The notes: a model not told the origin generated them from the letters alone. A DNA stretch of 64,000 bases from Thermoproteota archaeon (GCA_029887765.1 JARXPF010000001.1:64488-128487), one strand, 5' to 3'. Positions 36,273-45,167 are shown, counted from the first letter of the stretch. Translations and numbers: made by a program.

Positions 36273-36710
36273 TTAATGTAATGAGGATAAAAATTTCTTA
36301 ATTTTATTTACCATAATTTTTGCTTCTTCTTCTGTAGATGGATAAGGTACAACAATATAAGGAATGCCTCTCTGTTTTACTAAATATATTAAAAATTCAT
36401 TAGCTCTTGCACAACTTGTACATCCAAAACCAATCTCTGGATCATCAATTATTATTGCTGCATCTGCTTCTTCAATTATTGGACCAATTAATGCCAGTCT
36501 ACCTCTAACACCAGAAGGAACTTCTATGGCTACATACTTTAATCCTCTTCTAGGAAATTCAGGAGTTATGTTCATTGGAGGAGAGTCTATTTCTGGTTTA
36601 TTCACATTTTTTGAAACTTCTTCTCCTAATCCTAATGGAGTATGCCCAAATCTTTTAACTAAATCAAATAAAATAATACTATTTGGAGGAAATATGAATA
36701 CTTTAGCCAC
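36273..36710 (-). CDS. Small Mcr-cluster protein, family not assignable by eye (methanogenesis-marker-type?)
   Basis: 145 aa. Start overlaps the mcrC stop by 8 nt (coupled). The antisense ORF 36364..36714 is S-rich and low-complexity and was rejected. Confidence 0.4.
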   Translation of the reverse strand: MAKVFIFPPNSIILFDLVKRFGHTPLGLGEEVSKNVNKPEIDSPPMNITPEFPRRGLKYVAIEVPSGVRGRLALIGPIIEEADAAIIIDDPEIGFGCTSCARANEFLIYLVKQRGIPYIVVPYPSTEEEAKIMVNKIKKFLSSLH

Positions 36711-37350
36711 TTAATTTCACAACTCCTTCTTCTATTTTATTTAACCAAAATCTTACTTTTAATATTATTTCATTTAATTTATCTCTTTGAATACTCACTC
36801 CTCTAACTACACCAGTAACAATATCCACAATTATTCCAAGACATTCTACTTTATCAGGAGGTGGACGAACTATCCTTGTAATTATACCAACTTTTGCAAA
36901 ATCTTCATAATCCACAGGTGCTTCACAAACAATAATAACAGGAATATCAATATATCTTAAAAAAGTTCTTGCTTTATATACAACATGACCTAATATACCA
37001 CCTAAATGAAGAATTGCAAGTTTGAATCTTTTTATTTGAAGAATTTCTTTTTCATTTATTCCTGCCATTGTTCCTCCTGGTGCTCCACCATATGGTGAAT
37101 CAGGAGGTACGCCTGATCCTGATTCTAATACTAATACACTAGTCCTTATGCCTTGTTCTCTAAGTCCATAAGTTATTTCACATATTGGTTTTGTAATATG
37201 CCTCTTAGAAGGAGACATAGCTATTGCAATAACATCGAATCGCTCAGATTCTGATATAGTTCCTCTTTGAGCTAAACCTCCACCTATACCAACTCCTTGT
37301 GCTTCTCTACAATCTACTATTTGCGAACTTCTTCCAATGATTCTTTCCAA
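36703..37350 (-). CDS. mcrC: Methyl-coenzyme M reductase operon protein C (McrC)
   Basis: 215 aa. 'VDCREAQGVGIGGGLAQRGT...VIAIAMSPSKRHITKPICEITYGLREQG' matches the McrC N-terminal signature as recalled ('[20 protein letters not shown]...RHITKPVCEIT'). Confidence 0.7.
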   Translation of the reverse strand: MERIIGRSSQIVDCREAQGVGIGGGLAQRGTISESERFDVIAIAMSPSKRHITKPICEITYGLREQGIRTSVLVLESGSGVPPDSPYGGAPGGTMAGINEKEILQIKRFKLAILHLGGILGHVVYKARTFLRYIDIPVIIVCEAPVDYEDFAKVGIITRIVRPPPDKVECLGIIVDIVTGVVRGVSIQRDKLNEIILKVRFWLNKIEEGVVKLSG

Positions 37351-37670
37351 TAAACTGCACCCCTAATATAGTCTGAAACTGTGGGCCTTGGTTTTGTAAA
37401 CTTTCCTATTCTAATATCAAAGCCATATGGCATCATTTGTTCACAAATTGGAGTTATTTTTTCTATAACTTCCTCAGGGGTTACTCTATTAATTAGTAGA
37501 ATAAATCTTCCTACCAAATATCGCCCATCATAATATTTATGTTTATATAATAATACTTCGTTTATTAGACCTGTAGATTTAATTAAATTAACAAATTCCT
37601 CAGCTTTATCCATAGACATTAAACGTCTTGGCATTATTTCTATTTCTTGTTCACTCAATATAAGCACCAT
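37317..37670 (-). CDS. McrD-like small protein
   Basis: 117 aa immediately upstream of and overlapping mcrC. 'IEIMPRRLM' resembles the McrD N-terminal 'IEIFPHR.L'. Weak. Confidence 0.35.
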   Translation of the reverse strand: MVLILSEQEIEIMPRRLMSMDKAEEFVNLIKSTGLINEVLLYKHKYYDGRYLVGRFILLINRVTPEEVIEKITPICEQMMPYGFDIRIGKFTKPRPTVSDYIRGAVYWKESLEEVRK

Positions 37671-42756: not shown

Positions 42757-44638
42757 AGTAAAATTTTTACCTGAGGGTAAGAAAACTTTAGTAAAAGAAG
42801 GAGCTACAGTTTTTGAAGCAGCTCTAAAAGCTGGTGTTGATCTTATAGCATTATGTGGTGGTAAAGGATTTTGTGGAAAATGTTTAATAGAAATTATAAA
42901 AGGAGAAATTCCTCCACCTACAGAACAAGAATTACGTAAAATTGGTAAAGAAAAAATTGAAAAAGGAATTAGACTAGCATGTCAATTAAAAGTATACGAT
43001 AATTTAATAATAGGAGTGCCAAATCAAAGTAGAATAGGAAAACAGAAATTAGTTATAATGGGCGTAGAACCACCAATTAAAATTAATCCAAATGTTAAGA
43101 AATTTTATTTTGAAATTACTCCTCCATCATTAGATGACCCTAGAGGAGATGATTTAAGAATAAATGAAATTTTATCAAATATAAACAATATTTCATTTAA
43201 TTATTCATTAGTTAAAGAAATGCCATCAATTCTAAGAGAAAGTAATTGGAAAGTCACTTTAACAATAGTAAATAATGAATTAATAAATATACAACCTGGT
43301 GATAAGACAAAAGATTGCTATGGAGTTGCAGTAGATATTGGAACTACAAAACTTGCAGTATTCATAGTAGATTTGTTAAGTGGTGATATATTATTTGCAG
43401 ATGGAATGATGAATCCACAAATAAAATATGGAGAAGATGTGATTTCAAGAATACAATATGCATCTCAAAGTAATGAAAATCTTAGAGAAGTTCAAAATGC
43501 AATAATAAATGGAATAAATGGATTAATAGAAAAAGGATTAAAGGAAACTGGTATAAATAAAGAGGATTTATATGAAATGGTCGTAGTAGGAAATACTGCT
43601 ATGCATCACTTATTCTTAGGATTAAATGTAAAATGGCTTGGTTTAGCACCTTATGCTCCAGTAATAGGAATGGGATATAATGTTAAGGCAAGAGAAATTG
43701 GAATTAACATAAACCCTTCTGGTAATGTTTATACATTACCAAATGTAGCAGGTTTTGTAGGTGCTGATGCTATAGCAGATATCTTAGCATCAAAAATATA
43801 TGAAAAAGATAATTTAACACTACTCATGGATGTTGGAACAAATACTGAAGTAATATTAGGGAATAAATATGAGCTTTTATGTTGTTCCACAGCTTCTGGA
43901 CCGGCATTTGAAGGAGCTCATATAAAATTTGGTATGAGAGCTGCAAGTGGGGCAATAGAAAGAGTGAAAATAAAAGAAGATTTTGAAGTTGAATATTCTA
44001 CAATAGATGATGAAAAAGCAAGAGGAATATGTGGCTCAGGTATTATAGATGCTATTGCTGAAATGTTAAGAACAGGAGTAATAGATACTGCTGGTAGAAT
44101 TGTATTAGAAAATCATAAAAGAGTACGAAAAGGAGAATTTGGTAAAGAATTCATTATTGTATTTAAAGAAGAAACAGCTACAGGTGAAGAAGATATTGTA
44201 ATAACTCAAGAAGATATTAGAGAAATACAGAAAGCAAAAGCTGCAATGTATGCTGGATATATGACACTTATGAGAGTAGGAGGTTTTAAGAAAGAAGATT
44301 TATTTGAAATAATAATTGCAGGAGCTTTTGGAAGTTATATTGATCCATTAAGTGCAAAAATCATAGGAATGATACCTGAATTACCAATATCTAAAATATC
44401 ATTTTTAGGTAATACAGCAGGATCAGGTGCAAGAATATGTTTAAAATCAATTGATTATAGAAAAAAAGCTGAAGAAATTGCTAAAAAAATGAAGTATATA
44501 GAGTTAGCTGTAATGCGAATTTTTGAAGAAGAATATATAAACGCAATGTTTTTACCAAATAGTAGAATTGAAGATTTTCCAGAAGTAATGAGTATTATAA
44601 AAGCACCAATAAATGTGAAAAGATATGTTAAAAAATGA
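42746..44638 (+). CDS. RACo-type reductive activase: N-terminal plant-type 2Fe-2S ferredoxin fused to ASKHA-fold ATPase (COG3894/DUF4445)
   Basis: 630 aa. 'CGGKGFCGKC...LACQ' 2Fe-2S pattern, then a large domain with 'GVAVDIGTTK' and 'LLMDVGTNTE' ASKHA phosphate motifs. Start overlaps the A2 paralog stop. Confidence 0.6.
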   Translation: MEFEVKFLPEGKKTLVKEGATVFEAALKAGVDLIALCGGKGFCGKCLIEIIKGEIPPPTEQELRKIGKEKIEKGIRLACQLKVYDNLIIGVPNQSRIGKQKLVIMGVEPPIKINPNVKKFYFEITPPSLDDPRGDDLRINEILSNINNISFNYSLVKEMPSILRESNWKVTLTIVNNELINIQPGDKTKDCYGVAVDIGTTKLAVFIVDLLSGDILFADGMMNPQIKYGEDVISRIQYASQSNENLREVQNAIINGINGLIEKGLKETGINKEDLYEMVVVGNTAMHHLFLGLNVKWLGLAPYAPVIGMGYNVKAREIGININPSGNVYTLPNVAGFVGADAIADILASKIYEKDNLTLLMDVGTNTEVILGNKYELLCCSTASGPAFEGAHIKFGMRAASGAIERVKIKEDFEVEYSTIDDEKARGICGSGIIDAIAEMLRTGVIDTAGRIVLENHKRVRKGEFGKEFIIVFKEETATGEEDIVITQEDIREIQKAKAAMYAGYMTLMRVGGFKKEDLFEIIIAGAFGSYIDPLSAKIIGMIPELPISKISFLGNTAGSGARICLKSIDYRKKAEEIAKKMKYIELAVMRIFEEEYINAMFLPNSRIEDFPEVMSIIKAPINVKRYVKK

Positions 44639-45167
44639 TATTATTAATATATTAAATAAAATTGAAGGAATCGTAAAAATTGTGGAATTAAATGATGAAG
44701 AAAAAAAAGAAATAGAGAAATTAGAGAAAGAAGCAGAAAGTAAAGTACTTATGGGATTATGTAAAGGAATAAATATTGGTGTAAGAGAGGCCCTTAATAA
44801 AAAATTAGTCTATGCATGTTTAACAAATATGGAATTTAAATGGCCTAAAACTTCTTTAGTAAAAATAGTATGTGAAAATGAAGTAATAGCTGAAGATATT
44901 TATGATGAGGAACTTCTTAATAAAAAGAAGGAAGAGGGAAATTTAGTTTTAGGAAATTTAGTAGTTTATAAAGATAAATTAAAAATAATGAAAGAAAGAA
45001 AAGATAAATTATTAGCAATAATGCTTCCATTACCTATACCTGAATTAGAAAAAATAAATGCTATAGTAGGAAGTCCATCACCACCAGTTGATAAATATTT
45101 AAAAGTAAAGTTTGGGATTCTTGAAGAAAAGCCTGAACTTGGAACTATAATTATAGGAATAGACTAA
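44625..45167 (+). CDS. Hypothetical protein (180 aa) at the distal end of the Mcr-activation island
   Basis: ORF overlapping the RACo-like stop. No motif recognised. Confidence 0.3.
   Translation: MLKNDIINILNKIEGIVKIVELNDEEKKEIEKLEKEAESKVLMGLCKGINIGVREALNKKLVYACLTNMEFKWPKTSLVKIVCENEVIAEDIYDEELLNKKKEEGNLVLGNLVVYKDKLKIMKERKDKLLAIMLPLPIPELEKINAIVGSPSPPVDKYLKVKFGILEEKPELGTIIIGID

Follow-up and report, generated by a model that had tools for sequence, protein, structure and literature searches.

In a 64,000-nucleotide (nt) stretch of DNA from a Thermoproteota archaeon (GCA_029887765.1 JARXPF010000001.1:64488-128487), called the window here at its full length, two ATP-dependent systems for reductive activation, both of known kinds, seem to lie end to end: an operon for the activation of Mcr and, directly behind it, the gene of a RACo-type protein followed by an open reading frame (ORF) of 180 amino acids (aa), ORF180, which together are likely, judging from the sequence, to form a corrinoid activase pair. 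All components except ORF180 belong to known families, and the arrangement is specific to one clade. The RACo-like, A2-like and 180-aa proteins of the window are identical to proteins of metagenome-assembled "Candidatus Methanomethylicaceae archaeon" genomes, and window proteins are already in public databases under the generic names "ASKHA domain-containing protein" and "ATP-binding cassette domain-containing protein"; the G+C content of the window is ~28%. Families were assigned by profile searches (Pfam, NCBIfam/TIGRFAM), with bit scores read against the curated cut-offs, and gene neighbourhoods were surveyed by tblastn over 22 loci (L001-L022) together with precomputed gene calls. Ten of these loci belong to the Methanomethylicia clade (L001-L004 and L011-L016; Ca. 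Methanosuratincola verstraetei included).

How complete is the set of Mcr activation genes? The solved Mcr activation complex of M. maripaludis consists of McrC, Mmp7, Mmp17, Mmp3, A2 and DUF2098 (PMC12176620; PDB 8S7V/9H1L), and all six subunits are encoded in the window, each passing its family cut-off. For Mmp7, McrC, Mmp17 and Mmp3 the chains of 8S7V are the only solved structures matched in the PDB. Moreover, the Mmp7 residues H84, C90 and C143, which are ligands of the [8Fe-9S-C]-type clusters (PMC12176620), are kept in the window protein as H86, C92 and C145 within the motifs SRHHLPHPAC and GNFEYC. The genes mmp5, mcrC and mcrD are divergent from a co-oriented run mmp3-mmp6-mmp17-mmp7-A2 paralog (A2p), which continues through RACo to ORF180 with spacings of -4, +1, -14, +4, -11 and -14 nt and is followed after +32 nt by a TrpY-family gene (Table 1). 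A first-pass annotation had described this run as overlap-coupled, and the measured spacing of -14 to +4 nt from Mmp3 through ORF180 agrees with it; all ORFs that it had listed are present in the sequence where it had placed them, and its assignment of Mmp3, Mmp6 and Mmp7 is supported by profile scores that exceed the cut-offs. Its "two extra unplaced ORFs" are reduced to one, as the 183-codon frame is Mmp17 and only ORF180 remains to be placed. The proposal of a complete ATP-coupled reductive activation system holds as far as the compactness of the gene set is concerned, but the island at 36.3-45.2 kb is incomplete when taken alone because the true A2 sits at 54514-56112.

The frame of Mmp17 contains no ATG, GTG or TTG before codon 116. 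An ATT at 39620, situated 9 nt after an AGGAGG motif (39605-39610), is aligned with the ATG or TTG starts of homologs and is also found in two related lineages (L011, 5734-5760; L003, 6866-6880), in the second of which automatic gene calling shortened the gene to 144 aa. From the sequence context, Mmp17 probably initiates at this ATT. A frameshift fusion of Mmp6 and Mmp17 was considered and rejected, since the homologs are separate genes with ATG or TTG where the window has ATT.

The A2-like call for the gene behind mmp7 was also right, TIGR03269 being the best family for A2p even though the score stays below the cut-off. A2p shares 28% identity with the window's true A2 and is devoid of the zinc-binding motif (ZBM), as a 28-residue deletion removes the CxxC...CxxC of the first nucleotide-binding domain (NBD1), and it carries an insertion of ~58 aa in NBD2; both nucleotide-binding domains with their Walker and signature motifs are intact. 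ZBM-less A2 homologs are known in many archaea, are uncharacterised and have been used as outgroup (bioRxiv 10.64898/2026.03.18.712670). The A2p family is widespread among Mcr archaea, and the A2-paralog loci of three other Mcr lineages (Nezhaarchaeota, Methanobacterium and Archaeoglobales) have no RACo alongside. In the Nezhaarchaeota locus (L008) the paralog lies between mcrD and mcrA, and in the Archaeoglobales locus (L010) beside DUF2099 and DUF2114. In Methanobacterium ferruginis (L009, 9001-10734) the ZBM-less paralog is found amid genes for a flavin reductase, Usp, rubredoxins, ferritin, peroxiredoxin and SOD; these oxidative-stress neighbours hint at a role of the A2 paralog in redox repair rather than in primary activation.

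What kind of activase is the RACo-type protein? All four RACo Pfam domains are found and the alignment with 3ZYY extends over the full length with 448 bits, which bears out its description as a 2Fe-2S ferredoxin domain joined to an ASKHA ATPase (COG3894). The first-pass wording "fused in line" is correct inasmuch as RACo abuts A2p, but not as to a gene fusion, the two being separate genes in different reading frames that overlap by 11 nt. The [2Fe-2S] ligands are in place (CGGKGFCGKC from residue 37 and LAC79Q, aligned to the 3ZYY motif), and the ASKHA nucleotide motifs are intact (DIGTT at 197, DVGTN at 362, and GNTAGSGA). The protein stays under both equivalog cut-offs, scoring 540 against 800 for AcsV (NF040756) and 158 against 500 for RamA (TIGR04270), and is by these profiles a member of the COG3894 superfamily but of neither the AcsV nor the RamA subfamily. 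In the RACo structure Ser398 (3ZYY) ligates the Co(II) of the client corrinoid (PMC4934906). The corresponding column holds Ala383 in the window protein with Ser384 adjoining, and the loop sequence S[T/C]AS-GPAFEG is shared by 118 of the nearest 120 relatives (the best 120 of 8000 matches), with no difference between mmp-linked and corrinoid-linked genes. Going by the residues of this Co-contact loop, we see no sign of a change of function in the mmp-linked RACo. We know of no CoFeSP/ACS pathway in Methanomethylicia, and for this reason the client of the window RACo would be a corrinoid protein of the MtaC/MtmC type. Corrinoid methyltransferases as a class need COG3894-type activases (RamA, RACo). 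Methanosuratincola in culture uses H2 to reduce methanol and monomethylamine (PMC12244365) and thus depends on corrinoid methyltransferases.

The linkage of RACo to the Mcr activation genes is found throughout the Methanomethylicia loci. The order mmp3-mmp6-mmp17-mmp7-A2p-RACo is colinear in 10/10, with RACo proteins 63% to 80% identical to that of the window, and the 11-nt overlap between A2p and RACo is kept in nine of them; in the tenth (L016) a gap of ~20 nt separates the A2p match from that of RACo. In addition, many further A2p and RACo homologs among the matches listed agree in the length of their longest contig, some lying on contigs of only 4.5-17 kb. The A2p-RACo linkage is real within the clade, and the condition under which the first-pass annotation would have been refuted, a RACo-like gene never linked to atwA/mmp7 in related genomes, does not apply, as all ten related loci show the linkage. 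Where the flanks reach, unrelated genes are equally syntenic (HMG-CoA reductase upstream; TIM, NadE, an Mrr-like gene and ThiD/N downstream), and 21 of the 38 co-directional neighbour pairs of the window overlap or are at most 5 nt apart, close pairs of unrelated genes such as hydrolase/HMG-CoA reductase and NadE/Mrr-like gene among them. Since unrelated genes are as syntenic and overlaps are common, neither the conserved adjacency nor the overlap is a specific sign of shared function.

Outside this clade RACo is found in other company. A RACo-type neighbour is not conserved across Mcr lineages, linkage being confined to one clade among the loci examined. Neighbour-joining places the mmp-linked RACos in a single clade, and P0062, P0063 and P0064, the type of L005 and L022, are its sister group. 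In L005 (RACo 57% identical) RACo is followed by an ORF180 homolog, TrpY, TIM, NadE, Mrr and ThiN as in the window, and preceded by unrelated genes for PAPS reductase, Lon and an acetyltransferase; mmp or A2 genes do not occur next to it. As L005 keeps the downstream synteny and its upstream genes are unrelated, a synteny breakpoint falls exactly between A2p and RACo. It could be imagined from this breakpoint directly upstream of RACo that the two gene groups are adjacent with no shared regulation, a promoter for RACo-ORF180-trpY lying inside the 3' end of A2p and a neutral rearrangement having been fixed in one clade. The L016 arrangement with its gap instead of an overlap and the pervasive overlaps of a compact genome would agree with that, but the 11-nt overlap together with a GAGGG motif upstream of RACo is kept in most loci of the clade and the run from mmp3 to trpY leaves no intergenic room for a terminator, which makes this explanation improbable.

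Further RACo loci lead to corrinoid methyl transfer. L022 (RACo 58% identical) has a cluster, free of mmp genes, with RACo and an ORF180 homolog at its head; the other members are MtmB, an MtaA/MtbA-like methyltransferase, a corrinoid protein and PylS/B/C/D. RACo of the Jordarchaeales locus L007 (48%) is flanked on one side by MttB-family, corrinoid protein and MtrH genes, and its other neighbour is an open frame resembling ORF180. Two distant homologs, one from Methanomassiliicoccales (L017) and one from an Oscillospiraceae bacterium (L018), have corrinoid and MtaA-like genes within 6 kb, namely a corrinoid protein and two MtaA-like genes in the former, and in the latter corrinoid proteins on both sides. 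In a Bathyarchaeia locus (L006) RACo lies amid housekeeping genes.

Could RACo nevertheless be dedicated to Mcr activation as a component peculiar to this lineage? In that case electrons from its [2Fe-2S] domain would enter FeSIII, the surface-exposed cluster where Mmp7 and Mmp17 meet, and the ASKHA ATPase, perhaps with A2p, would add the energy for reaching Ni(I). The overlap-coupled position right after mmp7-A2p in every Methanomethylicia locus speaks for such a role, as does the fact that the complex has no known physiological electron donor and that further factors are thought to be missing (PMC12176620). Taken further, RACo, possibly with the ZBM-less A2p and ORF180, would have been recruited in Methanomethylicia as the missing low-potential electron-injection module, a corrinoid activase that also primes Ni-F430; we hold this to be quite unlikely. 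Several observations argue against the dedicated role: 1) the linkage is found in one clade, and unrelated flanks are as syntenic where the loci reach; 2) overlaps are common between unrelated genes of the window; 3) the sister clade has RACo-ORF180 in a context of MtmB, Pyl and corrinoid genes with no mmp genes; 4) orthologs in corrinoid contexts have the very same Co-contact loop and the same motifs throughout; 5) no RACo-like protein was co-purified with McrC in M. maripaludis, the purified Mcr activation complexes having no RACo-like subunit (PMC12176620, PMC9584954); 6) the A2 paralogs of three other lineages have no adjoining RACo. Because the only footing of the idea is adjacency, we give it low odds, and the first-pass suggestion that the reductive activase is dedicated to the Mcr activation module is not sustained. 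The alternative named there, service to a corrinoid system, fares better as regards the function, a corrinoid activase being favoured, but not as regards a specific tie to the genes at 14.1-15.8 kb.

ORF180 follows RACo closely in its distribution. Eight of the ten clade loci have it after RACo, the exceptions being L003 and L004, which lack it. Three loci outside the clade, L005, L007 and L022, also have the RACo-ORF180 pair, there with no mmp genes; the L022 homolog is 41% identical (E 1e-42). ORF180-family genes that have no adjoining RACo are found in L019, beside MtmB, a corrinoid protein and PylC, and in L020, beside an MtaA-like gene. ORF180 is associated with RACo and with corrinoid methyltransferases rather than with Mcr. 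The gene that comes next in the window, for a TrpY-family regulator, follows ORF180 also in L001, L002, L005, L011, L012, L014, L015 and L016. A Foldseek search with ORF180 gave nothing significant, and its fold resemblance is marginal. In the Jordarchaeales locus (L007, 9198-9884) the ORF180 homolog is open over ~200 codons, has a canonical start only in the last 63 codons and was left uncalled; it either uses a non-canonical start or is a decaying gene. In L019 (4674-6086), where PylC adjoins and an ORF180-family gene belongs to the locus, MtmB is called as two ORFs (202 and 260 aa), a split that we read as a gene interrupted by a putative in-frame UAG for pyrrolysine.

A further possibility is that a single RACo acts on the corrinoid proteins as well as on the Mcr activation complex, or has a low-potential electron input in common with the latter, ORF180 then being adaptor or donor. 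Such a double use would be in line with the operon position right after mmp7-A2p and with small genomes (1.5 Mb), which favour multifunctional proteins. It is nonetheless unlikely in our estimation, as the structural searches with ORF180 offer nothing beyond marginal resemblance, L003 and L004 keep the mmp-A2p-RACo order but have no ORF180, and there is no precedent for a RACo with a non-corrinoid client.

We thus favour RACo-ORF180 as a corrinoid activase pair behind the Mcr activation operon. How would the two systems work side by side? By homology to the M. maripaludis complex, electrons would reach Ni-F430 along a series of [8Fe-9S-C]-type clusters housed in McrC, Mmp7, Mmp17 and Mmp3, and A2 would supply the ATP-driven conformational step of Mcr activation. 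The [2Fe-2S] domain of RACo would take an electron from a low-potential donor, and its ASKHA ATPase would dock on a Co(II) corrinoid protein of the MtaC, MtmC or MtbC type, whereupon ATP would drive the reduction of Co(II) to Co(I). The RACo-ORF180-trpY block may have come to lie behind mmp7-A2p in the ancestor of one Methanomethylicia clade. Through this placement the two repair systems, which serve successive steps of the pathway (methyl-X to CH3-Co to CH3-CoM to CH4), are probably transcribed together. Four points weigh against this interpretation. The window RACo has Mcr activation genes directly beside it and the nearest corrinoid gene ~28 kb away; translational coupling would fit the 11-nt overlap of A2p and RACo in 9/10 clade loci; a further COG3894 gene elsewhere in Methanomethylicia genomes might be the real corrinoid activase; and the sister-clade organisms (L005, L022) may or may not have Mcr.

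Table 1. Genes of the Mcr activation run with RACo and ORF180, followed by other Mcr and corrinoid genes of the window (positions counted from the first letter of the window; bit scores against curated cut-offs where given)
Feature	Coordinates	Strand	Evidence
Mmp5 (methanogenesis marker 5, DUF2112), 145 aa	36273-36710	-	TIGR03271 214 bits (cut-off 140); PF09885
McrC, Mcr activation complex subunit	36703-37350	-	TIGR03264 280 bits (cut-off 213); sole PDB match 8s7v_I McrC, 233 bits
Short McrD-like protein, 117 aa	37317-37670	-	PF02505 (MCR_D) 57 bits (cut-off 25); TIGR03260 55, under cut-off 100
Mmp3, Mcr activation complex subunit	37703-39217	+	TIGR03268 479 bits (cut-off 234); PDB 8s7v_J 289 bits
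Mmp6 (DUF2102)	39214-39618	+	TIGR03272 133 bits (cut-off 126)
Mmp17 (DUF2113), Mcr activation complex subunit	39620-40171	+	TIGR03291 130 bits (cut-off 67); PF09886 150 bits; PDB 8s7v_G 65 bits
Mmp7 (McrC paralog), cluster-binding core of activation complex	40158-41078	+	TIGR03274 397 bits (cut-off 349); PDB 8s7v_H 276 bits
A2 paralog (A2p), twin-ABC ATPase, 557 aa	41083-42756	+	TIGR03269 306 bits, under cut-off 517; best PDB 8s7v_K A2, 229 bits
RACo-type reductive activase, 630 aa	42746-44638	+	Fer2 PF00111 40 bits; RACo_linker PF17650 78; Raco_middle PF17651 197; RACo_C_ter PF14574 320
ORF180, undescribed family accompanying archaeal RACo genes	44625-45167	+	no Pfam/NCBIfam match
TrpY-family regulator, last gene of co-oriented run	45200-45703	+	NF053754 208 bits (cut-off 180)
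Corrinoid protein, candidate RACo client	14109-14762	-	TIGR02370 216 bits (cut-off 215)
MtaA/MtbA-like methylcobamide:CoM methyltransferase, candidate RACo client	14763-15803	-	TIGR01463 222 bits, just under cut-off 235
mmp15	51393-52637	+	TIGR03286 651 bits, over cut-off
ycaO/mmp1	52627-53832	+	TIGR03266 490 bits, over cut-off
tfuA	53832-54470	+	NF033432 263 bits, over cut-off
True A2/atwA	54514-56112	+	TIGR03269 767 bits (cut-off 517); CxxC...CxxC at residues 70-93
DUF2098, 95 aa, small subunit	57085-57372	+	PF09871 70 bits
mcrA	58705-60372	-	Pfam MCR_alpha_N, MCR_alpha
mcrG	60384-61169	-	Pfam MCR_gamma
mcrB	61162-62496	-	Pfam MCR_beta_N, MCR_beta

The remaining Mcr genes of the window, true A2, mmp15, DUF2098 and mcrBGA, lie 6-17 kb downstream of the island. 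A second block for Mcr maturation and activation (51393-56112) has the order mmp15-ycaO-tfuA-atwA, with an overlap of 11 nt between Mmp15 and YcaO. DUF2098, which co-purifies with the Mcr activation complex (PMC12176620), overlaps a HAD-type hydrolase gene by 16 nt (57085-58688), and a DUF483 gene is located on the minus strand directly downstream of mcrA; the Nezhaarchaeota locus likewise has DUF2098 next to DUF483. The match of the short McrD-like protein is confined to the C-terminal third of the McrD models (PF02505 model positions 73-121), and homologs of comparable size (109-120 aa) are found in L001, L003 and the Nezhaarchaeota locus L008. In addition to the corrinoid genes in Table 1, a second MtaA-like gene is present at 6850-7839. 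On the minus strand at 19549-22440 a GlcD-like FAD-binding protein adjoins an HdrD-like CCG-domain protein, a candidate heterodisulfide-reducing module, and such a pair is also found near the A2 paralog of the Archaeoglobales locus. At 32638-34558 the listed coordinates give a glycosyltransferase and the next ORF, a hydrolase, 158 nt in common; the latter has probably been assigned a start too far upstream. No tRNA and no Rfam element was found in the 64,000-nt window.

No paper connecting RamA, RACo or corrinoid activation with Methanomethylicia, Verstraetearchaeota or Methanosuratincola turned up in our literature search, and none that joins RACo with Mmp7 or Mcr or discusses the present gene arrangement. 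If the favoured reading is true, Co(I) and Ni(I), both oxygen-labile, super-reduced cofactors, have their repair systems in one probable transcription unit. Mcr activation still awaits the identification of its physiological electron donor and of its missing factors (PMC12176620), and the compact run of nearly all activation genes with an A2 paralog and a reductive activase constitutes a convenient gene set for heterologous reconstitution. Furthermore, cultured Methanosuratincola strains make the question of Mcr versus corrinoid directly testable, and the locus reveals a small undescribed family, ORF180, that accompanies archaeal RACo and methylamine methyltransferase genes.

How does the locus compare with known systems? 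The genes of the M. maripaludis complex are dispersed, whereas those of the window are mostly clustered and, unlike there, are followed by RACo and ORF180. The ZBM-less A2p sits after mmp7, which is the inferred position of A2 in Methanosarcina (the gene order is not stated in PMC12176620). MA_3967 of M. acetivorans is an example of the ZBM-less A2 homologs, which the window A2p resembles in having both NBDs and no zinc-binding motif; a point of difference is that A2p is embedded in the mmp operon in Methanomethylicia. With RACo of Carboxydothermus hydrogenoformans (3ZYY, 4C1N) the window protein has in common the four-domain architecture at nearly the same length (631 aa versus 630), the Cys motif CGGxGxCGKC...C and the ASKHA nucleotide motifs. 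The Ser that ligates Co is displaced by one residue, the window protein having AS before GPAFEG where C. hydrogenoformans RACo has SA, and unlike the latter the window RACo belongs to an archaeal, methyl-reducing methanogen, with Mcr activation genes before it and the 180-aa ORF after it. RamA of Methanosarcina (TIGR04270) is said, in work by Ferguson and colleagues of 2009, to have C-terminal [4Fe-4S] ferredoxin motifs and no N-terminal [2Fe-2S] domain. It has the ASKHA core in common with the window RACo (residues 192-600, 158 bits), and its presumed task in methylotrophic methanogenesis is the same as that presumed for the window RACo.

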